From Novosphingobium sp. (GTDB lineage: Bacteria > Pseudomonadota > Alphaproteobacteria > Sphingomonadales > Sphingomonadaceae): DNA of 64,000 nt. The notes under the pieces were generated by a model. That model was not told the DNA's origin and ran no database searches. It saw only the letters and a program-made list of their open reading frames with translations. Made by a program: the position numbers and the translations under genes. The stretch spans positions 123,686-187,685 of the forward strand of contig NZ_JAIXZS010000083.1 of the NCBI RefSeq assembly GCF_027489515.1, written 5' to 3'. Shown here piece by piece: positions 7,677 to 59,370 of this stretch (the stretch's first letter is position 1; each line of letters starts with the position of its first letter).

Positions 7677-10115
7677 GTGACCAAGAAATCTTTCAAGACG
7701 ACACTGGCCAAACAGGCCCTGTTCGGTGCGACGATCCTGATGGGCAGCACCGCTTTTCCCGCATTGGCGCAGATTGCGCCAGAAGCTGCGGGTGACGCGC
7801 CGCAGGCGGCAGCGGTCGAGGACAATAGCGCCATCGTGGTGACCGCCACCCGGCGCGCGACGTCGCTGCAGGACGTGCCGATCAACATCACCGCGGTAAG
7901 CGCCGACCAGCTTGCGCGCCAGCGCATCGACGACGTGCGCGACATCGCCGACTTCACGCCTGGCATCACGATTGCGGACACCGGTCCGGGCTCGACCGGC
8001 ACAATCGTTCTGCGCGGCCTCAACGCCTCCGACTCTGACACGACCGGCGCAACCTATGACAACGCGCTGGGTGTCTATCTCGGCGAAGTCCCGCTCTACT
8101 TCGACTTCAAGATGCTCGATATCGCGCGCGTCGAGACGCTGCTCGGTCCGCAAGGCACGCTCTACGGTCTCGGTACGCTGGCGGGCGCCATCCGCAACAT
8201 CCCCAACCGTCCGGACACGACCAACTACAGCGGGGAAATGCACGGCCGTCTTTACGCCAAGAACCAGGCCTCGAAGGCCGGTTATCAGATCGACGGCGTG
8301 ATCAACATTCCGATCGTGAAGGACCACATCGCCTTCCGCTCGGCGACCGGCTACTATTTTGACCCGGGCTTCATCGATTATCCGCTGATCGTGAAGACGC
8401 CGGGCGTCTCCCTGCCTCAGGCGCCCCGCTCGCCCGCGATCACGCAGGCCTTCGCCGATGCAAACTTCGCCGGGCAGAAGGATCTCAACTATGAGAAGAC
8501 CTTCACCACCCGCAACCAGCTGCTCGTGCAGGTGACGCCCGACCTCTCGGTCGATTTCACTTACGCCTTCCAGCACACCAAGACCGGCGGCGGCCAGTAC
8601 AACAGCAACGGCGTGTTCGGCACCGGCAAGTATGAAAGCGCGGCCCGCTTTGCCGAGCCCGTGGATCGCCGCGCGCACCTCGCCAGCGTGGAGATCAACG
8701 CGAATGTTGCGGAAATCTTCGATCTTGTCGCCACCACGGCCTACACCCAAGTGAAGAACAAGCGGATCGGGGACAACACCGACCTCCTGCTCGATCTCGA
8801 CTATGACTACGAGCTGTTCCCTGCCTTCACCAGCTACAACGAGAGCGAAAACACCCGCAACCAGTTCAACAACGAGGTCCGCCTCGTCTCGACACATGGC
8901 GGGCCGTTCAGCTGGGTGCTTGGCGGGTTCTTCAACGAGCAGAAGCTGCAGGCCGATTACCGCGAACACGTACCGGGCCTGCCCGGCGTCGATCTGGTGC
9001 GTAACCCCGAGGAGATCGAGTACGCATCGTTCAACCGCGCCAAGATCAGCGAGCGCGCGGTGTTCGGCGAGGGTACGTTCAAGATCACGCCGGAATGGCA
9101 AGTCACGGCGGGCGGACGTCTGTTCAACTACACGTCGAAGGTTTCGGGGCGCGCGGTCACGCCGCTGCTGGGCGATCCCATCAGCCCCTATGCCCTCACG
9201 GCAGCCGGCGGGACGTCGCGCAAGGGCGGCAACGTGTGGAAGTTGAACACGTCATACAAGTTCTCGTCGGGCCTGATGCTCTACGCGACCTATAGCAAGG
9301 GCTATCGCATCGGCGGACCCAACACGGTTGCCCCTTGCGTGCTGCCGCTCAAGCCGCCGCCGTTCCAGAACGTCTGCGCGTTGCCGAACGAGCAGCAGTT
9401 TGGCCCGGACTCGACCAAGAACCTCGAGGTGGGTATCCGCGCCGAGCTGTTTGACCGCAAGCTGACCTTGAACATGAACGCGTTCAAGATCGATTGGGAC
9501 GGCATCCAGGTCGCCTCCGCCACGGTCAACGGCATCGTCGGCATCACGGTCAACGGCGGCAAGGCGAAGTCCGAAGGTTTCGAGACCTCGTTCCAGCTGC
9601 GGCCCATCGATGGTCTGTCGATCCAGGGGACCTACTCGTACACGAACGCAAGGCTGACGCAGGACGTTGCCAAGATCATCTCGGTGAACAGCCCGGCCGG
9701 CAAGTATCCCAGCTCGCCGATCCAACTCGACGCGCTGAGCGGTGACCGCCTGCCCGGCTCGACCCGGCACAGCGGCAGCCTTGGTATCAACTACACCAAG
9801 CCAATGCTGGGCGGTGATGTCACCGCCGACTGGACCGCGACCTATCGCGGCGACGTCGTGACGCGTCTTGGCTGGGACCGCGCCTTTGGTGACAAGCTGG
9901 ACGGCTTCATCCTGCACCGCGCTTCGCTGAGCTGGCAGAATGATACGTTCACGTTCGGTCTCTACGCCAACAACATCTTCAACAAGTACGCGGTGACAGC
10001 GATTTCCAACGACCGTTCGCGGATAGGTGTCAACGACGGGGTGCGCCTGCGCTACTTCCGCCGCACCGTGATCACCCCGCGTACTGTCGGACTGGAGTTC
10101 CGGGTGAAGTACTGA
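7677..10115 (+). CDS. TonB-dependent receptor
   Basis: Signal peptide, IVVTATRR TonB-box region, plug signature ETLLGPQGTLYG, aromatic C-terminus EFRVKY. Start uncertain (GTG 7677 or ATG 7626). Confidence 0.93.
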   Translation: MTKKSFKTTLAKQALFGATILMGSTAFPALAQIAPEAAGDAPQAAAVEDNSAIVVTATRRATSLQDVPINITAVSADQLARQRIDDVRDIADFTPGITIADTGPGSTGTIVLRGLNASDSDTTGATYDNALGVYLGEVPLYFDFKMLDIARVETLLGPQGTLYGLGTLAGAIRNIPNRPDTTNYSGEMHGRLYAKNQASKAGYQIDGVINIPIVKDHIAFRSATGYYFDPGFIDYPLIVKTPGVSLPQAPRSPAITQAFADANFAGQKDLNYEKTFTTRNQLLVQVTPDLSVDFTYAFQHTKTGGGQYNSNGVFGTGKYESAARFAEPVDRRAHLASVEINANVAEIFDLVATTAYTQVKNKRIGDNTDLLLDLDYDYELFPAFTSYNESENTRNQFNNEVRLVSTHGGPFSWVLGGFFNEQKLQADYREHVPGLPGVDLVRNPEEIEYASFNRAKISERAVFGEGTFKITPEWQVTAGGRLFNYTSKVSGRAVTPLLGDPISPYALTAAGGTSRKGGNVWKLNTSYKFSSGLMLYATYSKGYRIGGPNTVAPCVLPLKPPPFQNVCALPNEQQFGPDSTKNLEVGIRAELFDRKLTLNMNAFKIDWDGIQVASATVNGIVGITVNGGKAKSEGFETSFQLRPIDGLSIQGTYSYTNARLTQDVAKIISVNSPAGKYPSSPIQLDALSGDRLPGSTRHSGSLGINYTKPMLGGDVTADWTATYRGDVVTRLGWDRAFGDKLDGFILHRASLSWQNDTFTFGLYANNIFNKYAVTAISNDRSRIGVNDGVRLRYFRRTVITPRTVGLEFRVKY

Positions 10116-42454: not shown

Positions 42455-44104
42455 ATGAGCGGAGCCGCGGTCGCCGACGTCGCTGGGATCGAGGAGAACG
42501 GCGAACTGCTCCGCTCGCTCGACTGGAAGGGCGCATTCTGGGCCTCGAGCGGCGTTCCAGCGGGCGTGCTCCTGACCATCGGCGGGATCGCGACGATGAT
42601 TGGCCAGCCAAGCTGGGTGATCTTCATTGCCTCGATCATGATGGGTTTCCTGCAGAGCTTCGTCTACGCCGAGATCGCCGGGCTCTATCCGCACAAGTCT
42701 GGCGGGGCCTCGGTCTATGGGGCGGCGGCATGGCTGCCCTATTCCAAGTTTGTCGCGCCGATTTCGGTGTGGTGCAACTGGCTGGCCTGGTCGCCGGTGC
42801 TGACGCTCGGCACCAGTCTGGCGGCGGGCTACATCATGGCGAGCCTGTTTGCGCCCGACAGCGCGATCAACACCTGGCACATCACGCTGCTCGATCTGGG
42901 CTTTATCCGGGAGAAGCTGACGCTGCGCATCAACGCCGTCTCGATCATCGGGACCGCGTTTCTGCTGCTGACCTTTGCGTTGCAGCATGGCGGTGCGGCC
43001 AAGGCTGCGAATGCGCAGAAGATCCTCGGCATTGCCTGCCTTGCCCCGCTCATCCTCGTAGGCTTCGTGCCGCTGATCACCGGTGATCTGCCGACGCAGA
43101 ACCTGTTTCCGATCCTGCCCCTGGTGCGCGATGCGGCGGGCCATGCGCATTTCGGCACATGGGACGGCTATGGCCTGACACTAATGGCTGCCGCGATGTT
43201 CGGTGCTGGCTGGTCGACTTACGGATTCGAGACAGCGGTCTGCTATACCCGCGAGTTCAAGAACCCGGCGAAGGATACGCCGCGCGCGCTGATTGCCTCG
43301 GGCATTCTGTGCATCGTGATCTTCGCGCTGGTGCCGCTGGCGTTCCAGGCCTCGCTGGGGCTGGAAGCGATGATGGACCCGCGCATCGGGGATGGGTCCG
43401 GCGTGGCGCTGGCGCTCGCCACCATCGTGACCAAGGGGCTGGGCGTTACGGCCGGCGGCGCGGTGGTCGTCGCCAACCTGTTCATCGCGATGCTGATCCT
43501 CTCGCTGCTGCTGATCGTGATGACCTCGATGATGGGCTCCTCGCGCACGCTCTATCAGGCGGCGGTCGATGGCTGGCTGCCGAAGTATCTGGGCCGGGTG
43601 AACAGCCACGGCGCGCCGACGGCGGCGATGTGGACCGATCTCGCGTTCAACCTCGTGCTGCTGCTCGCCTCGGACTACTTCGCGGTGCTGATGATCAGCA
43701 ACGTCTGCTACATGGCCTTCAACTTCCTCAACCTGCAATCGGGCTGGATCCACCGCATGGACCGGGCCAATTGGGAGCGCCCGTTTCGCTGCCCGACCTG
43801 GCTGCTGGGGCTTGGCGCCGTGTTGGGTTTCGTGAACATGGCTTTCATGGGCGCAGGCGCGGACGTCTATGGGGCTGGCACGTTGCGCAACGGCCTCATC
43901 GGCGTGCTGCTGATCCTGCCGGTCTTTGCCTTTCGCCATTACGTGCAGGATAAGGGTGTGTTCCCGGCCGCGCTGTCGGAAGATTTTGCCGAAAGCCCGG
44001 CGATGAAGCGCGCGGGGCTGCTGCCGTGGGTTGCGCTGGCGGGCGCTGCGGTGGTGGTGTTTGCGGCGCATTCACTGGCCATGCTGCCGGTGCCGGTGGG
44101 GTAG
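42455..44104 (+). CDS. APC-superfamily amino acid/amine permease
   Basis: About 12-13 transmembrane helices, with YAEIAGLYPHKSGG and WSTYGFET APC motifs. ATG 42455. Confidence 0.85.
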   Translation: MSGAAVADVAGIEENGELLRSLDWKGAFWASSGVPAGVLLTIGGIATMIGQPSWVIFIASIMMGFLQSFVYAEIAGLYPHKSGGASVYGAAAWLPYSKFVAPISVWCNWLAWSPVLTLGTSLAAGYIMASLFAPDSAINTWHITLLDLGFIREKLTLRINAVSIIGTAFLLLTFALQHGGAAKAANAQKILGIACLAPLILVGFVPLITGDLPTQNLFPILPLVRDAAGHAHFGTWDGYGLTLMAAAMFGAGWSTYGFETAVCYTREFKNPAKDTPRALIASGILCIVIFALVPLAFQASLGLEAMMDPRIGDGSGVALALATIVTKGLGVTAGGAVVVANLFIAMLILSLLLIVMTSMMGSSRTLYQAAVDGWLPKYLGRVNSHGAPTAAMWTDLAFNLVLLLASDYFAVLMISNVCYMAFNFLNLQSGWIHRMDRANWERPFRCPTWLLGLGAVLGFVNMAFMGAGADVYGAGTLRNGLIGVLLILPVFAFRHYVQDKGVFPAALSEDFAESPAMKRAGLLPWVALAGAAVVVFAAHSLAMLPVPVG

Positions 44105-44129
44105 CTCACCGCCCCGAGGGCAACCTTGG

Positions 44130-44226
44130 CTCTCCTCGCCGGTGGGGAGGGGTTGGGGGTGGGGGTTCGGCCTTTCCGTCAAGCTCAGCGCACCCCCACC
44201 CGGCCTCCCCCGAACCGGGGGAGGGG
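44130..44226. repeat. About 100-bp palindromic intergenic repeat, copy 2
   Basis: Arms match those of 2176-2273 (see there), with a different core. Confidence 0.85.
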
Positions 44227-44323
44227 CGGTAAGTGGCGGACTTCGGATTGTTTGGCCTCTAACGACCTAATACTCTGCATAAGTCTTTGCGATAGCCGCA
44301 ATGAGCGGTTCAGCCGCGCGCGC

Positions 44324-44353
44324 TTGGCTGGCATATCGGATCCCTGATATAAG
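44324..44353 (+). promoter_or_regulatory. Possible sigma70 promoter TTGGCT-N18-TATAAG for the dimethylglycine dehydrogenase operon
   Basis: Hexamers seen 21 bp upstream of ATG 44375. Weak match only. Confidence 0.3.
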
Positions 44354-44374
44354 AGATCGAAAGCCGAGGGCGAA

Positions 44375-46882
44375 ATGAAGACGACAGCGCGGGTAGTGGT
44401 GATCGGTGGCGGTGTGGTGGGCGTGAGCACGCTCTATCACCTCGCCAAGCTCGGCTGGAGCGATTGCGTTCTGATCGAGCGCAAGGAGTTGACTTCGGGT
44501 TCCACGTGGCACGCCGCGGGCCTGCTGCCGCTGTTCAACCTCTCGTACTCGGTCGGCAAGCTGCACCAGTACTCGGTCGATCTCTACCCCTCGCTGGAGG
44601 CCGAGACCGAGCTCAACGTCGGCTTCTCCAACGTTTCCAACATCCGCCTCGCCACCACGCGCGACCGCATGGACGAGTACAAGTACTACGCCGGGGTCGC
44701 GAGCACCATCGGGGTCGAGGTGAACTTCCTCAGCCCCGACGAGGTCAAGGCGATCTGGCCGCTGGCCGACATGACGAACGTGCTCGGCGCGATTCAGCAC
44801 CCGGCCGACGGCTATATCCAGCCCGCCGATCTCACGCAGGCGCTCGCCAAGGGCGCCCGTCAGCGTGGGGCGACGATCTACCGCAACACGACCGTCACCG
44901 GCATCACCCAGAAGGCCAATGGCGAATGGTTGGTGACGACCGACCAGGGCGAGATCACCTGCGAGCATGTCGTCTCCGCGACCGGCAGCTTCGCGCGCCA
45001 GACGGGCGAGATGATCGGCCTCGATATTCCGGTCGTGCCGGTCGAGCATCAGTATATCGTGACCGAGCAGCACCCCGAGATCATGGCGCGGCGCAAGGCG
45101 GGTCTGCCTGAAATGGGCGTGCTGCGCGAAAGCGACGCAAGCTGGTACATGCGTGAGGAAGCGGGCGGCCTCTTGCTCGGGCCTTATGAAGTCGGCGCGC
45201 CTGCGTGCTACGTGAAGGGACCGGCGGCCAACAGCGAGTACGAACTGTTCCCCGACGCGCTGGAGCGTCTCGAGCCCTATATCCTCTCGGCCATCGCGCG
45301 CGTGCCGGCGTTCGGCGAAGTGGGCGTCAAAAAGGTCTACAACGGCGCCATCGCCTACACCCCCGATGGTTCGCCCATCGTCGGCCCGGCGTGGGACAAG
45401 AAGAACTTTTGGCTCAACGAAGGCCACTCCTTCGGCATCACGGCTGCGGGCGGCGCAGGCTGGCAGCTGGCGCAGTGGATCGTCGAGGGTGAGCCGAGCA
45501 TCGACATGATGGGCGTCGATCCGCGCCGCTTCGGCGACTACGCGGGTGAGGGCTACCTCATCGAGAAGAATGAGGAAGCCTACGCCAAGGTCTTCACCGT
45601 GCACTACCCCGACGAGGAGCGCGAGGCCGCGCGTCCGCTGCGCCGCACGCCGTGCTACGACCGGATGAAGGCGCTGGGTGCTGTGTTCGGCAGCGTGTTT
45701 GGATGGGAGCGCCCCAACTGGTTCGCGCCCGAAGGCTATGAACTGAGCGAAGCCGATCTCGACAAGCCCGACGTGATCCTCAACCACAATCACCCCGATG
45801 TGCCGGGCGAGCCGATCCGCGAGAAGTGGTCGTTCCGCCGCTCGAACTACTTCGAGCATGTCGGCAACGAATGCCGCCATGTGACGCAGCATGTCGGAAT
45901 TCAGGACATGTCGGCGTTTGCGAAGTGCATGATTTCCGGCCCCGGCGCGGAAGACTGGCTGAATGGCCTGCTCTCCAACGTGGTCCCGAAGAAGACGGGC
46001 CGCGTCACGCTCTCGTACCTGCTGACGGATGCAGGCGGTGTGCGCGCGGAGTTCACTGTCTACAAGAAGGGTCCGCAGGCCTATTACCTCGTCTCGGCGG
46101 GCGCGCTGGAGCGGCATGACCAGGACTATCTGGTGAAGGCCTTGCCGACCGACGGTTCGGTGCGCTTCGAGCGGCTGACGACGGCGATGGGCGTGCTGGT
46201 CGTGGCGGGGCCGAAGTCGCGCGACGTGCTGCAGAAGCTGACCCACGCCGATCTTTCGAACGCGGCGTTCCCCTGGCTCACCGGCCAGTCGGTTTCGCTG
46301 GGCAGCGCCAAGGTCGATCTACTGCGCGTCAACTTTATCGGTGAGCTGGGCTTCGAAATCCATCACCCGATCGAGATGCAGAACTACATCTTCGACAAGA
46401 TCATGGCTGCGGGTGCGGAGTTCCAGATCAAGCCCTTCGGCATCCGTGCGATGACCGCGATGGCGATCGAGAAGAGCTACAAGCTGATCCCGCGCGAGCT
46501 TTCGATCGAATATGCGGCGCTCGAAAGCGGGCTCGACCGCTTCGTCAGCTTCAAGAAGCCGGCGTTCAAGGGCCGCGAGGGGCTGCTGGCGCGCAAGGAA
46601 GCGGGGCTAAAGTGGCAGTTCGTCACGCTGGAAGTCTTCGGCGTGACCGATGCCGACGCGCGCGGATCGGAAGCGATCCTCCGCGATGGCGCGCTGGTTG
46701 GCCGCGCGACCTCGGGCGGCTATGGCTGGCGAACGGCCAAGAGCCTGGCGCTCGCGATGGTCGCACCTGAACATGCCGCCATCGGCACGGAACTGGAAAT
46801 CGTGATCCTGGGTGAGCCGCGCCGCGCGGTGATCATCCCGGATTCGCCGTTCGACCCGGACAACAACGCATTGCGGAGCTGA
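44375..46882 (+). CDS. Dimethylglycine dehydrogenase-like FAD-dependent oxidoreductase with GcvT folate-binding domain
   Basis: IGGGVVG, LTSGSTWHAAG, YIQPADL, YTPDGSP, FGWERPNWF, DMSAFAK, VNFIGELGFEIH. Context between the bet and sox genes. Confidence 0.88.
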   Translation: MKTTARVVVIGGGVVGVSTLYHLAKLGWSDCVLIERKELTSGSTWHAAGLLPLFNLSYSVGKLHQYSVDLYPSLEAETELNVGFSNVSNIRLATTRDRMDEYKYYAGVASTIGVEVNFLSPDEVKAIWPLADMTNVLGAIQHPADGYIQPADLTQALAKGARQRGATIYRNTTVTGITQKANGEWLVTTDQGEITCEHVVSATGSFARQTGEMIGLDIPVVPVEHQYIVTEQHPEIMARRKAGLPEMGVLRESDASWYMREEAGGLLLGPYEVGAPACYVKGPAANSEYELFPDALERLEPYILSAIARVPAFGEVGVKKVYNGAIAYTPDGSPIVGPAWDKKNFWLNEGHSFGITAAGGAGWQLAQWIVEGEPSIDMMGVDPRRFGDYAGEGYLIEKNEEAYAKVFTVHYPDEEREAARPLRRTPCYDRMKALGAVFGSVFGWERPNWFAPEGYELSEADLDKPDVILNHNHPDVPGEPIREKWSFRRSNYFEHVGNECRHVTQHVGIQDMSAFAKCMISGPGAEDWLNGLLSNVVPKKTGRVTLSYLLTDAGGVRAEFTVYKKGPQAYYLVSAGALERHDQDYLVKALPTDGSVRFERLTTAMGVLVVAGPKSRDVLQKLTHADLSNAAFPWLTGQSVSLGSAKVDLLRVNFIGELGFEIHHPIEMQNYIFDKIMAAGAEFQIKPFGIRAMTAMAIEKSYKLIPRELSIEYAALESGLDRFVSFKKPAFKGREGLLARKEAGLKWQFVTLEVFGVTDADARGSEAILRDGALVGRATSGGYGWRTAKSLALAMVAPEHAAIGTELEIVILGEPRRAVIIPDSPFDPDNNALRS

Positions 46883-46886
46883 TCCC

Positions 46887-48128
46887 ATGATGCACTTTGA
46901 CGCGATTGCCGAAAGCCTGAAGCAGGACAAGCCGGGCTTCACCCTGCCGCAGAAGCTCTACGTCAGCGAGGAGGCCTACCGGTTCGATACCGAGGTCATG
47001 CTCAAGCAGGTGTGGCTCTATGCCTGCACCGTGGCGCACGTGAAAAACCCGGGCGATCAGTTCCTGTTTGAACTGGGCGAAACGTCGGTGATCGTGGTGC
47101 GCGACAAGCAGGGCGAAATCCGCGCCTTCCACAACACCTGCACGCATCGCGGCGCCAAGCTGTGCGAGAGCGCGGGGAAGTCTGCGCGTATCACCTGCCC
47201 CTATCACCAGTGGACCTTCGCGCTCGATGGCAAGCTGCTGGCGGCGCGCAACATGCCGGAGGACTTCAACAAGGCGGAGAATGGCCTGCGGCCTGTCGCG
47301 CTCGAAAACATCGGCGGCCTGATCTTCCTGTGCCTTTCGGACAATCCGCCGCCGATCGACCGGGTGAAGGCCGATATCGAAGAGCAGATCGCGATCTTCG
47401 ACATGACCAAGCTCAAGGTGGCGGTGCAGGACGACCTGATCGAGCCCGCCAACTGGAAGCTCGTCATGGAAAACAACCGCGAGTGCTATCACTGCGACGC
47501 GGGCCATCCGGAGCTGATGAAGTCGCTTTCGACCTATGGCTTCGGCAAGGGCCTGCCGGAAGACGGCGAGGCCGATGTGGTGGATGACGCCGCATTCGAT
47601 GCTATGCTGGAAGCGCAGCGCCAGCGCTGGAAGGATCTCGGGATCTACTACGATCTGATCGAGTTTCCCGACAACTGGTGGCACCGCGTCGCGCGGTTGC
47701 CGCTGGCGAACGGCGCCGTCTCACAGACGCTTGACGGCAAGCCTGCCTCGAAGAAGCTGATCTGGCCGCATGGCGATCAGGAGCAGACCAGCCTTTCGGT
47801 CTGGACGCAGCCCAATTCGTGGCACCACTTCTGCTGCGATCACGTGGTGACGTTCTCGCTCACGCCGCTGGGCCCGGACAAGACGCTGCTGCGCACGACA
47901 TGGCTCGTGCACGAAGATGCAGTTGAAGGCGTCGACTACGACCCTGAAAACCTCGCCGCGGTGTGGCGCGCGACCAACGCGCAAGACAGCCACTTCTCGG
48001 CAATCAACCACGCCGGGATCAAGGGCGATGGCTACCGCCCGGGGATGTATTCGGTCGAGGAGAAGCTGGTGGACGCGTTCAAGGCCTTCTACGTCGAGCG
48101 CAGCCGCGCCGCTCTGGGGATCGACTGA
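46887..48128 (+). CDS. gbcA: Rieske non-heme iron oxygenase alpha subunit, glycine-betaine (or proline-betaine) demethylase type
   Basis: Rieske CTH...CPYH, mononuclear iron WKLVMENNRECYHCDAGHPE, distal QD. GbcA/Stc2-like clade by motif and context. Confidence 0.72.
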   Translation: MMHFDAIAESLKQDKPGFTLPQKLYVSEEAYRFDTEVMLKQVWLYACTVAHVKNPGDQFLFELGETSVIVVRDKQGEIRAFHNTCTHRGAKLCESAGKSARITCPYHQWTFALDGKLLAARNMPEDFNKAENGLRPVALENIGGLIFLCLSDNPPPIDRVKADIEEQIAIFDMTKLKVAVQDDLIEPANWKLVMENNRECYHCDAGHPELMKSLSTYGFGKGLPEDGEADVVDDAAFDAMLEAQRQRWKDLGIYYDLIEFPDNWWHRVARLPLANGAVSQTLDGKPASKKLIWPHGDQEQTSLSVWTQPNSWHHFCCDHVVTFSLTPLGPDKTLLRTTWLVHEDAVEGVDYDPENLAAVWRATNAQDSHFSAINHAGIKGDGYRPGMYSVEEKLVDAFKAFYVERSRAALGID

Positions 48129-48130
48129 CG

Positions 48131-49384
48131 ATGAAGCGGTTTTCCGGTTTCAACCTGATCGGCGAGGCGTTCCGCAGCCATCAGGGCTGGCCCGAGCACT
48201 GGCCCGACAAGGCCCCCAAGGCGAGCTACGATGCGATCATCGTCGGCGCGGGCGGGCACGGGCTTGGCGCGGCTTATTACCTCGCCAAGAAGTACGGCAT
48301 CACCAATGTCGCGGTGATCGAGAAGGGCTGGCTGGGCGGCGGGAACACCGGGCGCAACACCACGATCATCCGCTCGAACTACCTCTACGACGAGAGCGCG
48401 CACCTCTACGATCACGCGGTGAAGCTGTGGGACGGGCTGAGCCAGGAACTCAACTACAACATCATGTATTCGAAGCGCGGCGTGCTGATGCTCGCGCACA
48501 ATGTGCATGATGTGCAGAGCTTCAAGCGGCACATCCACGCCAACCGGCTCAACGGCGTCGACAACGAATGGCTGACGCCGGAAGAGTGCAAGGCCTATTG
48601 CCCGCCGCTCGATATTTCGCCGCGCACCCGCCATCCGGTGCTGGGCGGCGCGCTGCAGCGGCGCGGCGGCACGGCGCGGCATGACAGCGTGGCCTGGGGT
48701 TATGCCCGTGCAGCCTCGGCGCTGGGCGTGGACATCATCCAGAACTGCGCGGTGACGGGCATCCGGCGCGGCGCAGACGGGGCGATCGAGGGCGTCGAGA
48801 CCGAGCGCGGCTTTATTGCCTCACGCCGGGTCGGCGTTTCGGCGGCGGGCAGCACCTCGCTCGTGATGAAGATGGCCGGCCTCGATTTTCCGCTCGAAAG
48901 CTATCCGCTGCAGGCGCTGGTTTCGGAGCCGGTCAAGCCGATCTTCCCTTGCGTCGTCATGTCGAACACCGTCCATGCCTACATGAGCCAGTCCGACAAG
49001 GGCGAGCTGGTGATCGGCGCGGGCACCGACCAGTACACCAGTTATTCGCAGCGCGGCGCGTTCCACATCGTCGAGCATACGCTGGCGGCGATCTGCGAGA
49101 TCTTCCCGATCTTCACGCGCATGCGGATGCTGCGCACGTGGGGCGGCATCGTCGATGTGACGCCGGACCGCTCGCCGATCCTCGGCAAGACGCCGGTCAA
49201 GGGGCTCTACGTGAACTGCGGGTGGGGCACCGGCGGCTTCAAGGCGACGCCGGGTGCGGGCGACCTCCTCGCCTACACCATGGCGCACGACGAGCCGCAC
49301 AAGATCAACGCGCCCTACAATCTCGACCGGTTCCGCAATGGCCGGCTGATCGACGAGGCGGCTGCGGCCGCCGTCGCGCACTGA
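48131..49384 (+). CDS. soxB: Sarcosine oxidase beta subunit
   Basis: ATG 48131. GAGGHG, GNTGRNTTIIRSNY, ARHDSVAWGY, WGTGGFKATPG, DEAAAAAVAH. Confidence 0.95.
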   Translation: MKRFSGFNLIGEAFRSHQGWPEHWPDKAPKASYDAIIVGAGGHGLGAAYYLAKKYGITNVAVIEKGWLGGGNTGRNTTIIRSNYLYDESAHLYDHAVKLWDGLSQELNYNIMYSKRGVLMLAHNVHDVQSFKRHIHANRLNGVDNEWLTPEECKAYCPPLDISPRTRHPVLGGALQRRGGTARHDSVAWGYARAASALGVDIIQNCAVTGIRRGADGAIEGVETERGFIASRRVGVSAAGSTSLVMKMAGLDFPLESYPLQALVSEPVKPIFPCVVMSNTVHAYMSQSDKGELVIGAGTDQYTSYSQRGAFHIVEHTLAAICEIFPIFTRMRMLRTWGGIVDVTPDRSPILGKTPVKGLYVNCGWGTGGFKATPGAGDLLAYTMAHDEPHKINAPYNLDRFRNGRLIDEAAAAAVAH

Positions 49385-49394
49385 GGCACACGAC

Positions 49395-49667
49395 ATGCTG
49401 CTGATTCACTGCCCCTATTGCGAAGAGGCGCGGCCCGAGGTCGAGTTCGCCTATGGCGGCGAAGCGCATATTGCGCGGCCCGTCGATCCTTCGACCTACT
49501 CTGACGAGCAGTGGGAGGAATTCCTCTACATCCGCAGCAATCCGCGCGGGCGGCACCATGAGCGGTGGCGCCATTCGCATGGCTGCGGGCGCTTCTTCAA
49601 CGCGGTGCGCGATACGGTGACGGACGTTTTCGAGACAACTTATAAGGCCGGGGAGGCCCGCAAGTGA
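49395..49667 (+). CDS. soxD: Sarcosine oxidase delta subunit
   Basis: MLLIHCPYC, EFAYGGEAH, ERWRHSHGCGRFFNAVRDT. Confidence 0.95.
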   Translation: MLLIHCPYCEEARPEVEFAYGGEAHIARPVDPSTYSDEQWEEFLYIRSNPRGRHHERWRHSHGCGRFFNAVRDTVTDVFETTYKAGEARK

Positions 49668-52528
49668 CCGGTTTTCGTCTGGCAGACGGCGGGCGGATCG
49701 ACCGCCGCACGAAGCGCAACTTCACGTTCGATGGCAAGGCGCGCTGGGGCTATGCCGGAGACAGCCTTGCCTCCGCGCTGCTGGCGCAAGGGCAGATGCT
49801 GTTCGGGCGCTCGTTCAAGTATCACCGGCCGCGCGGTATCCTCGGTGCTGGCGTGGAAGAGCCCAATGCGCTGGTGACGGTGGACCGCGGCCCGGGCCGG
49901 GTCACGCCGAACCTGCGCGCGCCTTCGGTTGCGATCCACGACGGGCTCAAGGCTGTGAGCCAGAACCGTTTCCCGACGCTCAAGACCGATCTGATCGCGG
50001 TCAACAACGTGCTGTCTGCATTCTTCCCGGCGGGCTTCTACAACAAGACCTTCATGTGGCCGCGCGCCGCGTGGGAGAAGGTCTACGAGCCGATCATCCG
50101 GCGGCTTGCGGGGCTGGGCGACAGCCCGACGACGCGCGATCCCGATCATTACGATGCGACGTACGCGCACTGCGAGACACTGGTGGTGGGTGCTGGGCCT
50201 GCGGGCATTGCTGCGGCGCTGGAAGCAGCGGCGACCGGCGGCCGCGTGATCCTGATCGACGAGCAGGAAGAAATCGGCGGCGGCGCGCTCAGCGATCCGG
50301 CGCAGTGGGCGTGGCTGGCGGAAGCGAGCGCGAAGCTGGCGGCGATGGACAACGTGACCGTCCTCTCACGCACGACGGCCATTGGCCACTATCACCAGAA
50401 CTTCGTCGTCGCGGCCGAGCGGCTGACCGACCATCTGGCGGTGAACGAGGCCGAAGGGCCGCGCGAGAAGCTTTGGCGCATCCGGGCGGGCGAAGTCGTG
50501 CTGGCGATGGGCGCCATCGAACGCCCGCTGGTGTTTGAAGGCAACGATGTGCCCGGCGTGATGCTGGCGAGCGCGGCGAAGACTTTCGCGCTGCGCTATG
50601 GCGTAGCGGTGGGCCGCAAGGTCGTCGTCATGGCGGTGCATGACAGCGGTTGGCGCGATGCGCTGGCGCTGCACAAGGCAGGCGTCAACATCGCTGCGAT
50701 TGTCGATCTGCGGCGCGATGTTGCCTCCGACCTGATCGAAGGCGCACGGGATGCGCGGATCGCCTGCTATCAGGGCTATGCGGTGACAAGCATTTCCGGC
50801 GGGCAGGCAGTGAAGGGCGTGACCATCGCGCTGGCAGGCTTCGGCAAGGGGCAGCAGCTCGATTGCGACGCCGTGCTGATGGCTGGTGGCTGGACGCCGA
50901 CGGTGCATCTGTGGAGCCATGCCAAGGGCACGCTGCGCTGGGACGAGGCCTGGGGCGCGTTCGTGCCCGACAAGACGCATGAGAACCTGCGCTGCGTCGG
51001 TGCTTGCGCGGGTGCGTGGAGCTTCGGCAAGGGCCTTCCGGGCGGGCTGTTGCCTGCGCCCAAGCCGCTGCATGAAAGCAAGGCTTTCGTCGATTTCCAG
51101 AACGACGTGAAGGCGCGTGATATCGGCCTGGCGGTGCAGGAAGGCTTTCGCTCGATCGAGCATATCAAGCGTTACACCACCAATGGCATGGCGACCGATC
51201 AGGGCAAGACTTCGAACCTCAATGGCCTCCAGATCGCCTCAGGCGTGCTGCACCGCCCGGTGACCGAGATCGGCCTTACCACGTTCCGCCCGCCCTATAC
51301 GCCGCAAAGCTTTGGCGCGATCCTTGGCCACCACAAGGAAGCGCTGTTTCAGCCGCTGCGCAAGACGGTGATCGATGATTGGGCTGCGAGCCATGGCGCG
51401 GTCTACGAGAACGTCGCACAGTGGCGCCGTGCGCGTTTCTTCCCGCAAGGCTCCGAGGACATGGACGCGGCGGTGGCGCGGGAGTGCCGCACGGTGCGTT
51501 CGGCTGTGGGCGTGTTCGATGCCTCCACGCTCGGCAAGATCGAAGTGGTGGGGTCCGATGCGGCGGAGTTCCTCAACCGCATGTACACGAACCCGTGGAA
51601 ATCGCTGGAGCCGGGCCGCTGCCGCTATGGTCTGCTGCTGGGCGAGCATGGGTTCATCATCGACGACGGCGTTTCGGCGCGGCTTGCGCCCGACCGGTTC
51701 CACTTGACGACCACGACCGGTGGCGCGGCGCGCGTGCTGAACATGATGGAGGACTACCTCCAGACCGAGTGGTCGGACCTCGACGTCTGGCTCACCAGCA
51801 CGACCGAGCAGTGGGCAGTGATCGCGGTGCAGGGGCCCAAGGCCCGCCGCGTGATCGAGCCGCTGATGGAAGGCATCGACCTTTCGCCGGAAGCCTTCCC
51901 GCACATGGCGGTTCGGGAAGGCCGGATCTGCGGCGTGGAGACGCGGCTGTTCCGCGTGAGCTTCACCGGCGAACTCGGCTTTGAAGTCAACGTGCCGGCC
52001 GAACATGGGCGCATGGTGTGGGAAGCGATCTGGGCCGAAGGCCAGAAGCACGGCGCGGTCGCCTATGGCACCGAGACGATGCACGTACTGCGCGCGGAGA
52101 AGGGCTTCATCATCGTCGGGCAGGATACCGACGGGACGATCACGCCGGACGATGCGGGGCTTGGCTGGGCCGTCGGCAAGAAGAAGCCAGATTTCGTCGG
52201 CAAGCGCTCGCTGGCGCGGCCCGACATCGTGGCGCCGGGCCGCAAGCAGCTGGTCGGCCTGCTCACCGATGATCCGCAGGCCGTGCTGGAGGAGGGCGCG
52301 CAGATCGTCGCCGATCCGAACCAGCCGGTGCCGATGACGATGCTGGGGCACGTGACGTCTTCGTACCACAGCGCGACGCTGGGCCGCTCGATCGCGATGG
52401 CGCTGGTGGCGGGCGGACGTGACCGGATGGGCGAGACGCTGCACATTCCGATGCCCGCGGGGACGATCAGCGCCAAGGTGGTCGCACCGATGTTCTATGA
52501 TCCGGAAGGGAGCCGCCTGAATGGTTGA
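49664..52528 (+). CDS. soxA: Sarcosine oxidase alpha subunit
   Basis: GDSLASALLA, RSFKYHRPRG, GFYNKTFMWP, KRYTTNGMATDQGKTSN, GcvT-like C-terminal half. Confidence 0.95.
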   Translation: MTGFRLADGGRIDRRTKRNFTFDGKARWGYAGDSLASALLAQGQMLFGRSFKYHRPRGILGAGVEEPNALVTVDRGPGRVTPNLRAPSVAIHDGLKAVSQNRFPTLKTDLIAVNNVLSAFFPAGFYNKTFMWPRAAWEKVYEPIIRRLAGLGDSPTTRDPDHYDATYAHCETLVVGAGPAGIAAALEAAATGGRVILIDEQEEIGGGALSDPAQWAWLAEASAKLAAMDNVTVLSRTTAIGHYHQNFVVAAERLTDHLAVNEAEGPREKLWRIRAGEVVLAMGAIERPLVFEGNDVPGVMLASAAKTFALRYGVAVGRKVVVMAVHDSGWRDALALHKAGVNIAAIVDLRRDVASDLIEGARDARIACYQGYAVTSISGGQAVKGVTIALAGFGKGQQLDCDAVLMAGGWTPTVHLWSHAKGTLRWDEAWGAFVPDKTHENLRCVGACAGAWSFGKGLPGGLLPAPKPLHESKAFVDFQNDVKARDIGLAVQEGFRSIEHIKRYTTNGMATDQGKTSNLNGLQIASGVLHRPVTEIGLTTFRPPYTPQSFGAILGHHKEALFQPLRKTVIDDWAASHGAVYENVAQWRRARFFPQGSEDMDAAVARECRTVRSAVGVFDASTLGKIEVVGSDAAEFLNRMYTNPWKSLEPGRCRYGLLLGEHGFIIDDGVSARLAPDRFHLTTTTGGAARVLNMMEDYLQTEWSDLDVWLTSTTEQWAVIAVQGPKARRVIEPLMEGIDLSPEAFPHMAVREGRICGVETRLFRVSFTGELGFEVNVPAEHGRMVWEAIWAEGQKHGAVAYGTETMHVLRAEKGFIIVGQDTDGTITPDDAGLGWAVGKKKPDFVGKRSLARPDIVAPGRKQLVGLLTDDPQAVLEEGAQIVADPNQPVPMTMLGHVTSSYHSATLGRSIAMALVAGGRDRMGETLHIPMPAGTISAKVVAPMFYDPEGSRLNG

Positions 52529-53048
52529 GATCGCAGAGATCGCGGTTTCGGCGGCGGAGCTGAAGCTGGGCACCGAGCCGGTGCAGGGTGATGGCGTTCG
52601 CCTTTCGCATGCTGACCCCAAGGCGCGCTATTCGCTGCGGGCGCGCGATGCCAAGGTTCTGGCCGCGGTGATCGGGCGCGCATTGCCAGGGAAGATCGGC
52701 GATACCGATGGCGGGATTGCCTGCCTTGGTCCAGACGAATGGTATGCGTTGCTGCCCGCGGGGACCGACCTGCCGCGCGTTGAGGGCTTGCCGGCGAGCG
52801 TGGTCGACGTTTCCTCGCGCGCGCTGGGACTGGTGCTTGAAGGGCCGGGGGCGCTCGCGGTGCTATCCAGCGGCTGCCCGCTCGATCTGGCGAAGATGGG
52901 CGTGGGCCGCGCGACGCGGACGGTGTTTGAGACGGTGGAGATCGTGGTCTGGCGCGAGGCAGAGGATCGCTGGCACGTGGAAGTCTGGCGCAGCTTTGCG
53001 ACCTGGCTGTGGAACGCGTTCCTAGCCGTGATGCCGCACGCGAAATGA
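52521..53048 (+). CDS. soxG: Sarcosine oxidase gamma subunit
   Basis: LGPDEW, VDVSSR, GCPLDL, EVWRSFATWLW. Confidence 0.88.
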   Translation: MVEIAEIAVSAAELKLGTEPVQGDGVRLSHADPKARYSLRARDAKVLAAVIGRALPGKIGDTDGGIACLGPDEWYALLPAGTDLPRVEGLPASVVDVSSRALGLVLEGPGALAVLSSGCPLDLAKMGVGRATRTVFETVEIVVWREAEDRWHVEVWRSFATWLWNAFLAVMPHAK

Positions 53049-53550
53049 GCGAGGCGGCGCTCAAGGATGCCCTCGCGGCGCTGGGGATCGATTGGTCGAT
53101 CCTCGAGCATGAGGCGGTCTATACCGTCGAGGAAAGCCTTGCGATCCACGATGCGCTGCCTGGTGCGCATACCAAGAACCTGTTCCTCAAGGACAGCGGC
53201 GGGCAGTTCTGGCTGGTGACGGTGGAGCATTCGCGCCGCGTTGACCTCAAGGCGCTGGCCGGCGCGATCGGCGCGAAGAAGCTGAGCTTCGGCAAGGCCG
53301 AGGACATGGAGCGGCTGCTGGGGGTGACACCGGGTTCGGTGACCCCGCTGGCCGCGATCAACGATACGGGCGGCGCGGTGCGCGTGGTGCTCGATCCCGA
53401 ACTTGCGGCGGCGGATGCGGTGCACGTCCATCCCTTGCGCAATACTGCGACGGTGGGCTTGCCGGGCGCGGATCTGGTGCGCGCGCTGGCGGCGTGGGGG
53501 CATGACCCGCTGATCGTGACGATCCCCGAGCGCATGGTCGCCGACCCGGC

Positions 53551-53554
<4 letters not shown>
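53045..53554 (+). CDS. ProXp-ala/PrdX-like (YbaK/INS superfamily) aminoacyl-tRNA deacylase
   Basis: ATG 53045. [44 protein letters not shown] overlaps with both soxG and sdaA. Confidence 0.85.
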
Positions 53555-54927
<1,373 letters not shown>

Positions 54928-54930
54928 AGG

Positions 54931-54957
54931 CATAAATAGGGACTGTCCCTATTTATG
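54931..54957. repeat. Perfect 27-bp palindrome CATAAATAGGGAC-T-GTCCCTATTTATG
   Basis: 13-bp arms with a 1-nt spacer, 3 bp after the sdaA stop. AT-rich relative to its surroundings. Confidence 0.7.
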
Positions 54958-55038
54958 GAGGGCAGGCACATGCTCGTCGACAGCGCTTGCACCCCTTGAT
55001 ACGATCTAGGACAAGTGTTCGGGGTTGGGGGTATCGAC

Positions 55039-56817
55039 ATGGCGGTTTCGCGTTTCGGCAAGTGGCTGCAGGGTGGGTTTGTGGCGGCGGCGCTGGCGCT
55101 TCCGGCGGGGCAGGCCTTGGCCAAGGAAGCGGTCGATCTGATCCTCCACAAGGGCCAGGTGATCACCGTCGACCGCGCGTTTACGCTCAAGACAGCGGTG
55201 GCAGTGAAGGGCGAGCGCATCGTTGCGGTGGGCGGCGAGGAGCTGCTGAATGCCTATTCCGCGCCCAAGGTGATCGACCTTGGCGGCAAGACGTTGATGC
55301 CGGGCTTTACCGATACGCACCTCCATCCCAAGCCCGTCTCGCCCAATGATATCGCGGTGCAGGATGCGAAGAGCATCACCGAAGTTCAGGCGATGCTGCG
55401 GGCCAAGGCAAAGGAGCTGGGGCCGGGCAAGTGGATCACCGGCTATGGCTGGCAGGAATCGAACTTTGCCGAGAAGCGCAATCTGAGCCGCGCCGATCTC
55501 GATGCGGCGGCGCCCAACAACCCGGTCGCGCTGCTGCGCGCGGGATCGCATTCGGCGGCGTACAATACGGCAGCATTCAAGATCGCCAAGGTAGACAAGT
55601 CGACGCCTGAGCCTGCGACTGGCCTGATCGAGCGCGGGCCGGACGGCGAGCCGAGCGGGATCATCCGTGAGCGCATGGATGTGGTCTCGAAGTTCATTCC
55701 CGATCCAGGCTGGGAAGCGATGCGTGGCCCCACGATCACCTGGCTCAAGCAGATGCTCGCACTCGGCATCACCAGCTTCCATGATGCCAGCGGCACGATC
55801 GATGACGAGCCGGTGGACAAGGGCGGCACGGACTCGAAGGACCTGGATCCGCTGTGGGGCGCGTCCAACATGACATGGACGCGCGCGCGCGAGATCTACG
55901 CCAAGATGGGCAACGAGCTGCCGCGCATCACGATGTACATCATCCATCCCGGCGCAGAGCGACTGAAGGCATTTCCCTATCACACCGGCTATGGCGACAA
56001 CCAACTGCGGCTCGGCGCAATCGGCGAGAATGCGGTCGATGGCGGCTTCACCGGGCCGACCGCGTGGCTGCTGGCCGACTACAAGGGCCAACCCGGTTTT
56101 CGCGGCAAGGGACGCTTTACCGATGCCGAGTTGCAGGAACTGGTCGACAGCGCGGCCAAGCTCGGCTGGCAGATGGGCATCCATGCCATCGGCGATGCGG
56201 CCATCGTGCAGGCAGTGAAGGCTTATCACAACGCGCTGACGACAATCCCCGATTCCGCCCTTGCATCGAATGACCGGCGCTGGTTCCTTGATCACTTCAC
56301 GATCATGCCGCCCGACGCGACCATGGCGACGATGGCGCAGGATCACGTGATGATCTCGCAGCAGCCCAACTTCCTCTACAATCTCGATGACCGCTATGCC
56401 GCGCTGCTCGATGACTGGCGGCTCGCGCACAACAATGCCGTGGTGACGCCGGTCAAGAAGTTCGGCCTATTCATGGCCTTTGCCAGCGACAACCTGCCGA
56501 TCGGGCCGCTGGTGGGGCTCTATGCCGCGGTAACCCGCAAGGGGCCGAGCGGGGCGGTGCGCGGGCCGGAGGAAGCCGTCACCCGGCAGGAAGCGATCCG
56601 CATGTATACGGCGAACGGGCCGTACCTTTCGTGGGAGGAAAACGAGAAAGGCACGCTGGAGCCGGGCAAGCTGGCCGACATGATCGTCCTGCCGTTCGAT
56701 CCGCTGACCGCGCCGATGGAGACGTTCCTCACTGGTGCGGTCGACATGACTTTTCTTGGCGGGAAGCTGGTCTACCAGCGTCCCGGTAGTGGCAAAAAAG
56801 CCGCACTCGCCAAGTAA
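55039..56817 (+). CDS. Secreted amidohydrolase-3 family metal-dependent hydrolase (YtcJ/NfdA-like)
   Basis: Signal peptide, GFTDTHLH, GIHAIGD, LDH, FASD, GTLEPGKLADMIVL. ATG 55039. Confidence 0.85.
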   Translation: MAVSRFGKWLQGGFVAAALALPAGQALAKEAVDLILHKGQVITVDRAFTLKTAVAVKGERIVAVGGEELLNAYSAPKVIDLGGKTLMPGFTDTHLHPKPVSPNDIAVQDAKSITEVQAMLRAKAKELGPGKWITGYGWQESNFAEKRNLSRADLDAAAPNNPVALLRAGSHSAAYNTAAFKIAKVDKSTPEPATGLIERGPDGEPSGIIRERMDVVSKFIPDPGWEAMRGPTITWLKQMLALGITSFHDASGTIDDEPVDKGGTDSKDLDPLWGASNMTWTRAREIYAKMGNELPRITMYIIHPGAERLKAFPYHTGYGDNQLRLGAIGENAVDGGFTGPTAWLLADYKGQPGFRGKGRFTDAELQELVDSAAKLGWQMGIHAIGDAAIVQAVKAYHNALTTIPDSALASNDRRWFLDHFTIMPPDATMATMAQDHVMISQQPNFLYNLDDRYAALLDDWRLAHNNAVVTPVKKFGLFMAFASDNLPIGPLVGLYAAVTRKGPSGAVRGPEEAVTRQEAIRMYTANGPYLSWEENEKGTLEPGKLADMIVLPFDPLTAPMETFLTGAVDMTFLGGKLVYQRPGSGKKAALAK

Positions 56818-56950
56818 TGGCCTGTGGATAAGGCTGGGGAAGCCGGCAATATTGCAGTAATGGGGCAATTCCCGCGAATTGCCATCGATCTGACTCCGTA
56901 TCGCGCCAATGCGCGGCCGAAACCCATGGGCTTCGGAAAGCATTACGGCG

Positions 56951-57766
56951 ATGATCGGCAAGCTTCTGCGCAGCGGTTTGATGGCGATGCTGCACCTCGC
57001 CTCGAGTCTTTCGGTCGCGACTGTGCCCGGATTGTCTGGCACCGGACTGGAGCATGCGAGATTGATCGGTGCCCTGCAGCTGCAGGGCGAGGTCTTCCAT
57101 GTTCAGGGTCTGGCACTCGACCCGGCCCATGTCTGGATCACCTCGGTCGACCATGAGCGGCACCGGGCATTCCTCCATGTGTTCGACCGCGCGAGCGGCC
57201 AGTTCCTGCGGCGGATCGAGCTCACCGACGGAGCGCGCTACCATCCCGGCGGGCTCTCGCTGGTTGGGGGATCGCTGTGGGTGCCGGTGGCCGAACTGCG
57301 GCCGGACAGCTCTGCGGTGCTGCTGGAAATCGATGCTGTGACGCTTTCGGTTCGCCGCCGGATTGCGGTCGCGGATCATATCGGCTGCGTGGCGGCAGAG
57401 GGCACACGTCTTGTGGCCGGCAATTGGGACAGCCGGATGCTCTACGAGTTCGATCTGGCGCGTGGCGACAAGCCGGTGCGCGTGGTCCCGAACCCTTCGG
57501 CAACGCACTTTCAGGACATGAAGTTCGCCGGCGGAAAGCTGGTTGCGGGCGGTAATGTCGGTTGGCTCGACGGCACGGTCGACTGGATCGATCCGGCAAA
57601 GATGCGCGTTACCCGCTCGCTCAAGGCCGGTTTCATCGGCACGGTGCGCCCGTTCGGTCGCGGTGGGCCGATCACCGGCGAAGGCATGGCGATCGAGGGC
57701 CGCGAGCTCTATGTCCTGCCCGAGGACGGCCCGAGCCGGGTGTTTCAATTCCGCCTCGACGCCTGA
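56951..57766 (+). CDS. DUF6454-like secreted hypothetical protein (probable beta-propeller)
   Basis: FHVQG, YHPGG, LWVPVAE, DHIG, FQD motifs and an N-terminal signal-like stretch. Family assignment from memory. Confidence 0.55.
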   Translation: MIGKLLRSGLMAMLHLASSLSVATVPGLSGTGLEHARLIGALQLQGEVFHVQGLALDPAHVWITSVDHERHRAFLHVFDRASGQFLRRIELTDGARYHPGGLSLVGGSLWVPVAELRPDSSAVLLEIDAVTLSVRRRIAVADHIGCVAAEGTRLVAGNWDSRMLYEFDLARGDKPVRVVPNPSATHFQDMKFAGGKLVAGGNVGWLDGTVDWIDPAKMRVTRSLKAGFIGTVRPFGRGGPITGEGMAIEGRELYVLPEDGPSRVFQFRLDA

Positions 57767-57889
57767 GGACCTTGGGGCTGATCGCCTCCCGATATCAAAA
57801 TTCTATGGGCTGCATGCAAACGGCGCTTCCGGAGCGCGCGCCGCTTGGATAGGCAGGGGCAAACGGCGCAAGGCCACGAGAGGAGACCC

Positions 57890-59370
<1,481 letters not shown>

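Follow-up and report, generated by a model that had tools for sequence, protein, structure and literature searches.

A ProXp-ala-type editing gene for tRNA(Pro) lies among one-carbon and sarcosine catabolism genes in the Sphingomonadaceae

Why should a gene for a tRNA-editing enzyme lie between those for a sarcosine oxidase subunit and a serine ammonia-lyase? ProXp-ala is a free-standing homologue of the editing domain of prolyl-tRNA synthetase (ProRS), and hydrolyses wrongly charged tRNA(Pro). We have studied a gene for a ProXp-ala-type aminoacyl-tRNA(Pro) trans-editing deacylase of 169 amino acids, here called proX (53045..53554, + strand), in a 64,000-nucleotide stretch of Novosphingobium DNA (the window). 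A previous reading of the sequence alone had placed this gene within a sarcosine oxidase-serine dehydratase operon, overlapping both of its neighbors by ATGA junctions.

Inspection of the letters confirms both overlaps. The ATG of proX (53045-53047) overlaps the TGA of soxG (53046-53048) to give ATGA at 53045-53048, and the ATG of sdaA (53551-53553) overlaps the TGA of proX (53552-53554) to give ATGA at 53551-53554. The start was taken as the ATG at 53045 rather than an upstream GTG at 53009, because homologues align from residue 1-3. The GC3 of proX is 0.85, like that of the neighboring genes, and comparison with four orthologues gave dN/dS = 0.10-0.15, corresponding to purifying selection. 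From these values we conclude that proX is a real gene under selection.

The genes around proX are all on the + strand. The four subunits of a heterotetrameric sarcosine oxidase are encoded in the order soxB (beta subunit, 48131..49384; PF01266 DAO, 245.6 bits), soxD (delta, 49395..49667; PF04267, 121.4 bits), soxA (alpha, 49664..52528; PF17806 SO_alpha_A3, GCV_T, GCV_T_C and Fer2_4) and soxG (gamma, 52521..53048; PF04268, 27.6 bits; TIGR01375, 94.5 bits, which is below the subfamily cut-off), an order that is the same in relatives. The soxB start was taken as the ATG 2 nt past the stop codon of the preceding gene, and soxB orthologues are 87-100% identical. That preceding gene (46887..48128) encodes a GbcA-like Rieske oxygenase (Rieske and Ring_hydroxyl_A domains; NF058607 GbcA, 414.8 bits, below the cut-off of 670), which may be the large subunit of a glycine betaine or related N-demethylating monooxygenase. 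It is preceded in turn by a gene (dmgdh, 44375..46882) for a dimethylglycine/sarcosine dehydrogenase-like flavoenzyme with a folate-binding GcvT domain (DAO, FAO_M, GCV_T and GCV_T_C). Further upstream are genes for a TonB-dependent receptor, a betB-like aldehyde dehydrogenase, a betA-like GMC oxidoreductase and an amino-acid permease. On the other side of proX, sdaA (53551..54927) encodes an L-serine ammonia-lyase of the Fe-S type (TIGR00720, 663.6 bits against a cut-off of 345); a single tblastn match makes this the sole copy found in the genome. A scan for promoters and terminators from 43000 to 58000 returned nothing above the shuffled expectation. The layout shows proX at the end of a predicted dmgdh-gbcA-soxBDAG-proX-sdaA operon, with putative translational coupling to soxG on one side and sdaA on the other. 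Both the junctions and the recurrence of the arrangement in relatives (see below) bear out the earlier placement of the gene.

The predicted protein matches PF04073 (tRNA_edit, YbaK/INS fold) over residues 22-146 of 169 with 108.1 bits, against a cut-off of 25.5. Its best structural match is ProXp-ala of Caulobacter crescentus (PDB 5vxb), aligned without gaps over residues 11-160 with E = 3.6e-40, followed by Agrobacterium Atu3699 (1vki, 7.7e-38) and human PRORSD1 (8huz, 4.5e-26). The next-best match is APE2540, at E = 1.5e-3, and the YbaK equivalog TIGR00011 scored 34.7 bits against a cut-off of 153. In fold and size ProX is the same as the C. crescentus enzyme (5VXB/1VJF/9BU5) and Atu3699 (1VKI).

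The functional residues of the C. crescentus enzyme (prefixed Cc) were mapped onto ProX, with their roles taken from the published studies (PMC10164551, PMC11511748). In these, Cc K45 is the conserved lysine that positions A76, the Cc Val100 carbonyl contacts the amine, Cc H130 is a histidine gate that prevents hydrolysis of Pro-tRNAPro, and Cc K50 and R80 recognize the acceptor stem, R80 reading G72. Cc H23, K45, N46-L47-F48, K50, V100 and H130 correspond to H22, K44, N45-L46-F47, K49, V99 and H129 in ProX. The catalytic lysine, the Asn-Leu-Phe stretch, the GxxPGSV loop (G93-V-T-P-G-S-V99) and the histidine gate (H129-P130-L131) are all retained. H22, K44, L46, F47, V99, H129 and N133 do not vary among 78 members of the ProX clade or among 37 other alphaproteobacterial sequences, whereas N45 and K49 are fixed in the 78 but not in the 37. 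These residues, together with the PF04073 and 5vxb matches, uphold the earlier assignment as a ProXp-ala-type trans-editing deacylase, and the comparison shows the predicted product to be a canonical member of that family.

There are nevertheless differences from the C. crescentus protein. The position of Cc R80 is K79 in ProX; of the clade members, 39 have R there, 34 have K and 5 have H. Cc G32 is a small pocket residue credited with the hydrolysis of Ser-tRNAPro by the Caulobacter enzyme (bioRxiv 10.1101/2020.09.11.293571); its equivalent is S31 in ProX, and serine throughout the clade. Clade-specific substitutions occur at 87-91, 102, 104, 121, 123, 128, 151 and 161. They include D87/E89/R90/L91, L102 in place of F, and V/C128 in place of F/Y beside the histidine gate.

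Is there any other means of editing tRNAPro in this cell? In the Novosphingobium genome, which is 94.6% complete, proX is the only match to PF04073. The ProRS is of the archaeal/eukaryote-like type I (proS_fam_I TIGR00408, 431.6 bits; 519 aa, with a C-terminal Tyr), and contains no INS editing domain. ProX is thus the only candidate tRNAPro editor in the cell. C1:G72 and A73, by which bacterial ProXp-ala recognizes its tRNA, are present in all three tRNAPro genes. ProX and the C. crescentus enzyme are alike in two respects: the accompanying ProRS has no functional editing domain, and the tRNAPro is of the C1:G72/A73 kind.

Is the arrangement peculiar to one strain? The order soxG-proX-sdaA was found at 10 other Novosphingobium loci, so it is not. 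In an even draw of 201 species of the genus, proX is patchy, being present in 45 (plus one fragment). We found soxD in 69 species; 40 have both genes, five proX alone, 29 soxD alone and 127 neither. The frequency of soxD is 40/45 in species with proX and 29/156 in those without, a naive odds ratio of 35 that is uncorrected for relatedness. The serine ammonia-lyase gene sdaA is present in 65 of the 201 species and in 39 of the 45 with proX, directly adjoining it in 31. The co-occurrence of sox, proX and sdaA that the sequence-only reading had proposed as a check is thus evident across the genus. A stronger statement, that proX always accompanies sox, was rejected, given the five species that have proX and no SoxD match and the 29 with soxD and no proX. 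Since four-base overlaps are common in operons, an ATGA overlap alone would be unremarkable; what lies beyond chance is the recurrence of soxG-proX-sdaA and of the proX-sdaA adjacency.

In the ProX protein tree for Novosphingobium the earliest arrangement is purU-proX-sdaA, frequently with frmA-frmB behind it and with lysR divergent from it. Next comes a purU-proX-sdaA block downstream of soxG, and in the clade of the window lysR and purU have been lost and proX is joined to soxG by the overlap. The orthologous sox operons of four species lacking proX end at soxG, from which we deduce that proX-sdaA is an optional module.

We also examined the surroundings of proX beyond the genus. A set of 75 Sphingomonadales loci was found by protein similarity alone, and their neighbors were identified by tblastn with representative proteins for frmA, VOC, frmB, purU, sdaA, soxBDAG, dmgdh and gbcA. 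All 75 loci have at least one gene of this set on the strand of proX at a distance of no more than 200 bp. If the VOC-fold gene is left out, 64 of the 75 have a same-strand one-carbon gene within 300 bp, and 71 of 75 within 2.5 kb. A species-level draw of the GTDB family Sphingomonadaceae (300 species, 105 genera) contains proX in 61 species and 26 genera, and the surroundings of 56 clade members were fetched. A one-carbon gene other than VOC was within 300 bp of proX at 32 of these 56 loci and within 4.5 kb at 38; with VOC included the number is 46, eight of which have a VOC gene only. The remaining 10 have none of these neighbors, and in one genus among them the neighbors of proX are moaA and a gene of the beta-lactamase family.

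At least eight gene orders are found across the Sphingomonadaceae. The commonest and taxonomically widest is frmA-VOC-proX-frmB, with gaps of 14-28 bp; in the form (frmA-)VOC-proX-frmB it occurs in Sphingorhabdus, Sphingosinicella and Erythrobacteraceae. Sphingopyxis has sdaA-frmA-VOC-purU-VOC-proX-frmB, Novosphingobium has purU-proX-sdaA(-frmA-frmB) or soxG-proX-sdaA, and other groups have purU-proX-frmA. In a Sphingomonas group the order is proX-dmgdh-gbcA-soxBDA, and in S. paucimobilis and Facivitalis it is soxBDAG-sdaA-proX. The key assignments are secure: frmA encodes S-hydroxymethylglutathione dehydrogenase (TIGR02818, 605 bits), frmB encodes S-formylglutathione hydrolase (TIGR02821, 412 bits), and purU matches TIGR00655 with 321 bits. 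Within the window, the frmA/frmB operon for glutathione-dependent formaldehyde oxidation is absent beside proX; in this genome frmA-VOC lies on one contig (C45) and VOC-frmB on another (C97). The common denominator of the proX contexts is one-carbon units, formaldehyde and serine.

These contexts bear directly on the role of sarcosine, a secondary amine that is an isomer of alanine. ProRS might misactivate sarcosine during betaine catabolism, with ProX stripping it from tRNAPro; sarcosine is alanine-sized, and alanine is accepted by ProRS, so that its acceptance too could be imagined, and the idea has chemical appeal. The overlap coupling of proX to soxG here and at the 10 other Novosphingobium loci is in keeping with this, as are the high frequency of soxD among proX-containing species of the genus, the position of proX at the head of the dmgdh-gbcA-soxBDA genes in the Sphingomonas group, and its place after soxBDAG-sdaA in S. 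paucimobilis. However, the link to sox extends no further than Novosphingobium and certain Sphingomonas, frm-type contexts being the rule for most of the family. No SoxD match was found in Sphingopyxis sp. Root154 or Qipengyuania mesophila, although both retain VOC-proX, with frmB behind it in Root154 but not in Q. mesophila, and sarcosine is therefore one of several options. The five Novosphingobium species with proX and no SoxD match, the 29 with soxD and no proX, and the sox operons that stop at soxG also argue against it. Bacterial ProXp-ala is described as rejecting proline by chemical selection as well as by size (PMC10164551; bioRxiv 10.1101/2020.09.11.293571); if the selection acts on the secondary amine, sarcosine would be disfavored too. 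Moreover, the literature searched yielded no paper tying ProXp-ala or ProRS to sarcosine. On balance the earlier proposal of sarcosine as the mischarged amino acid is unsupported, and we regard it as an improbable substrate on which to base the association.

Might proX simply be an ordinary Ala-tRNAPro editor with no functional link to its neighbors, travelling with a mobile catabolic island? ProX looks entirely canonical, most of the family does without the gene, and 10 of the 56 species-level loci have unrelated neighbors. The locus counts also overstate independence, because related species share arrangements by descent. Yet the linkage persists over the eight or more gene orders, with different one-carbon partners and at both the heads and the tails of operons, with gaps of 14-30 bp or overlaps. 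By our estimate, a random gene would adjoin a member of a list of some ten named genes in well below 1% of cases.

Control loci are also informative here. A ProXp-ala homologue is present in 197 of 401 alphaproteobacterial genomes, and one-carbon neighbors were found neither at any of the 29 best alphaproteobacterial loci from outside the family nor at any of 7 from other families of the order. At about 20 of these 36 loci a thioredoxin-TPR gene (CnoX/YbbN-like) lies downstream of proX. In Novosphingobium species without ProXp-ala, the INS genes are YbaK (TIGR00011, 169.7 bits) or TTHA1699/APE2540-like, and INS-family genes are missing altogether from 85 of the 201 species. The YbaK and TTHA1699-like genes are not among one-carbon genes, and the idea that all INS genes of the genus are one-carbon-linked was accordingly discarded. 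Thus neither the other INS genes of the genus nor the ProXp-ala genes of other Alphaproteobacteria have such neighbors, and we consider it very doubtful that proX is a mere passenger. The variety of arrangements and the uniformly negative controls lead us to reject, as the main reading, a purely housekeeping role with synteny arising by chance. The survival of the linkage through so many rearrangements strongly suggests a functional link of proX to one-carbon and methylamine metabolism.

What then might connect one-carbon metabolism to tRNAPro? Formaldehyde reacts spontaneously with cysteine to form thioproline, which is charged by ProRS. The ProX clade might therefore clear tRNA charged with formaldehyde-derived residues, mainly thioprolyl-tRNAPro. 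A second candidate on the same basis would be aminoacyl-tRNAs that have gained an N-methyl or N-methylene group by reaction of the alpha-amine with formaldehyde. The commonest and widest context of proX, among frmA and frmB, is what would be expected, and its other partners (sox, dmgdh, gbcA and purU) all release or handle either formaldehyde or one-carbon units bound to folate. Of the possible chemical connections of formaldehyde with tRNAPro, thioproline alone is documented; it is loaded onto tRNAPro and has a part in the toxicity of formaldehyde (bioRxiv 10.1101/2020.03.19.981027). In addition, formaldehyde modifies the amino groups of aminoacyl-tRNAs, and the adducts are removed by DTD2 (PMC10942605). 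The smaller residues of the clade at the aromatic positions 102 and 128 near the histidine gate point in the same direction. Against this, H129 is invariant, and it forms the gate by which the Caulobacter and E. coli enzymes keep out rings as large as that of proline; the other known pocket residues are unchanged, and thioproline is larger than proline. L-aminoacyl-tRNAs are, moreover, shielded from formaldehyde by EF-Tu (PMC10942605). The literature searched contained no paper tying trans-editing or YbaK in such a way to formaldehyde or S-formylglutathione hydrolase, nor any tying "prolyl-tRNA synthetase associated" proteins to formaldehyde. We consider formaldehyde-damage proofreading to be unlikely, but rank it ahead of sarcosine and of hitch-hiking.

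The type of ProRS provides a further comparison. The type I enzyme is present in this Novosphingobium genome, in one congener lacking proX, in a Sphingopyxis and in a Qipengyuania. The truncated-INS alphaproteobacterial ProRS (NF008979, 720-743 bits) is found in four other families of the order, which keep proX-cnoX. This suggests that the editor passed from housekeeping to accessory gene when the synthetase was exchanged, although eight genomes are a small sample. The Sphingomonadaceae ProXp-ala lineage would thus have left its housekeeping site beside the thioredoxin-TPR gene, coincident in these genomes with the family's archaeal/eukaryote-like ProRS, to become a patchy accessory gene in operons for the production or disposal of one-carbon units (sox/dmgdh/gbcA, purU, frmA/frmB and sdaA).

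The reading that we prefer is that ProX is made together with the enzymes of one-carbon and methylamine catabolism, and clears tRNA(Pro) of non-cognate residues whose supply would rise at that time, the canonical alanine and serine being the first candidates; we put its probability at about one half. Breakdown of betaine and sarcosine would lead to glycine, then to serine (by SHMT), to pyruvate and ammonia (by SdaA), and on to alanine. Such a flux, together with one-carbon assimilation into serine, would be expected to raise the pools of Ala, Ser and Gly relative to Pro. We rank Ala-tRNAPro and Ser-tRNAPro first because ProX retains the residues characterized in the C. crescentus enzyme, which hydrolyses Ser-tRNAPro as well (bioRxiv 10.1101/2020.09.11.293571). 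A point against this reading is that ProRS is not known to activate serine or glycine to any great extent.

Editing of Ala- and Ser-tRNAPro is in accord with the unaltered pocket and with the very close association of proX and sdaA, but less so with the frmA/frmB context. We know of no reason that ties misactivation of alanine specifically to formaldehyde oxidation, despite frmA/frmB being the commonest context. The 10 of 56 loci without these neighbors also weigh against the preferred reading, as do the co-occurrence counts, which are uncorrected for phylogeny, and the clade's own substitutions at 87-91, 102 and 128. We entertain more tentatively a dedicated enzyme of one-carbon damage control, recruited after the exchange to the archaeal-type ProRS, that would clear tRNA(Pro) of thioproline and/or sarcosine and N-methylated residues; we think this rather unlikely.

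How does this compare with known systems? The C. crescentus enzyme differs in its partner, which is the truncated-INS alphaproteobacterial ProRS and not type I, and in being housekeeping where proX is accessory and operon-embedded; ProX differs in residues at Cc R80 (Lys) and Cc G32 (Ser) and in the clade changes at 87-91, 102, 128, 151 and 161. The nearest precedent for the genomic setting is clostridial PrdX, which we take to be a ProXp-ala homologue, a gene of this type amid amino-acid catabolic genes that shift the balance of proline and alanine. PrdX has been named as a component of the D-proline reductase (prd) cluster (PMC10564238). It differs from proX in belonging to another phylum, in its association with Stickland reduction of proline, and in having no link to one-carbon or formaldehyde genes. 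DTD2, which removes aldehyde-modified D-aminoacyl-tRNAs in plants and archaea (PMC10942605), resembles the role proposed for ProX as a free-standing tRNA deacylase in tolerance of aldehydes including formaldehyde, a likeness that for ProX is at the level of hypothesis; its fold is unrelated and it acts on D-aminoacyl adducts. PepP, like proX, was noticed by chromosomal clustering with one-carbon genes, and by way of thioproline it connects the toxicity of formaldehyde with the chemistry of proline codons (Patterson et al., bioRxiv 10.1101/2020.03.19.981027). As a peptidase, PepP comes into play once translation has taken place, whereas ProXp would intervene beforehand, at the tRNA.

Trans-editing factors are usually seen as constitutive housekeeping enzymes, and a canonical one here behaves as an accessory gene. 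Judged from gene content and order, a ProXp-ala embedded in operons, coexisting with a type I ProRS and placed beside formaldehyde, one-carbon and serine genes, appears to be new with respect to the bacterial paradigm, and we found no paper describing it. Its operons span the demethylation of betaine and sarcosine, the disposal of formyl-folate and formaldehyde, and the deamination of serine. If the link is functional, the flux of one-carbon units and formaldehyde would threaten the decoding of proline codons, and the cells would answer with inducible proofreading, connecting formaldehyde toxicity, the chemistry of thioproline or sarcosine, and the fidelity of translation. Were ProX a dedicated damage-control enzyme, no other aminoacyl-tRNA deacylase of bacteria would have been connected with formaldehyde or methylamine stress before it, and were its targets formaldehyde-derived it would be a bacterial counterpart of the aldehyde-detoxifying role of DTD2 in plants and archaea. 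A functional link would also make proX a candidate protective gene for engineered methylotrophy or formaldehyde-using pathways. The Sphingomonadaceae offer a natural experiment within one family, in which the type of ProRS, the presence of the editor and the catabolic repertoire vary together.

Within the window, sdaA is followed at a distance of 87 nt by a gene encoding an Amidohydro_3 protein of 600 aa (55015-56817), and then by a gene for a DUF6454 protein (56909-57766). The same pair is also found 3′ of sdaA in most of the nearest Novosphingobium relatives. Another of the surveyed proX loci, L171, likewise has an Amidohydro_3 gene close to proX. The gap between sdaA and the amidohydrolase gene contains a perfect palindrome of 25 nt (54932-54956; ATAAATAGGGA-CTG-TCCCTATTTAT), beginning 5 nt past the sdaA stop codon. 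No T-run follows the palindrome in the window sequence, and the element could be either an operator or a hairpin at the end of the transcript.

The immediate 5′ neighbor of proX is most frequently a VOC-fold gene (40 of the 75 Sphingomonadales loci), which is present in duplicate in Sphingopyxis. It encodes a glyoxalase-fold protein of 126 aa (for example, positions 7599-7979 of proX locus L092; C97:93532-93897 in the genome from which the window derives). Among solved structures, the closest to this protein is 4qb5 (E = 2e-43), which comes from structural genomics and whose PDB title names no function. The window's own genome has a frmA-VOC block on one contig (C45:10324-11810) and a VOC-frmB block on another (C97:93532-94779), and proX is absent from both. 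In most other genera, such positions are occupied by proX.

At two loci that lack one-carbon neighbors (frmA, frmB, purU, sdaA, soxBDAG, dmgdh or gbcA), proX adjoins molybdenum-cofactor genes, these being moaA at L199 (genus g312) and a MobA-like gene at L171. In the Novosphingobium species G005, whose genome has a YbaK-type gene besides, we found a proX fragment of 57 residues with 46% identity (C146:18348-18518), which is probably the leftover of a lost proX copy. The window's own genome also contains a second, divergent sox-like cluster (C101:6845-16283) with gbcA-like (39% identity), soxB (50%) and soxA (41%) genes together with a second SoxD, and a similar second copy is carried by many congeners.

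The sampled Sphingomonadaceae (G000, G001, G619 and G620) have a type-I ProRS of the archaeal/eukaryote-like kind. Elsewhere in the order, four families (G027, G032, G035 and G039) have the alphaproteobacterial ProRS with a truncated INS domain. Among the 36 control loci (29 from other Alphaproteobacteria and seven from other families of the order; L020-L025 and L130-L157 belong to this set), ProXp-ala is followed in about 20 by a conserved thioredoxin-plus-TPR gene on the same strand. Its product is a CnoX/YbbN-like protein of about 305 aa with a WCGPC motif. We know of no discussion of this association in the literature; the pairing of ProXp-ala with the thioredoxin-TPR gene is a stable one.
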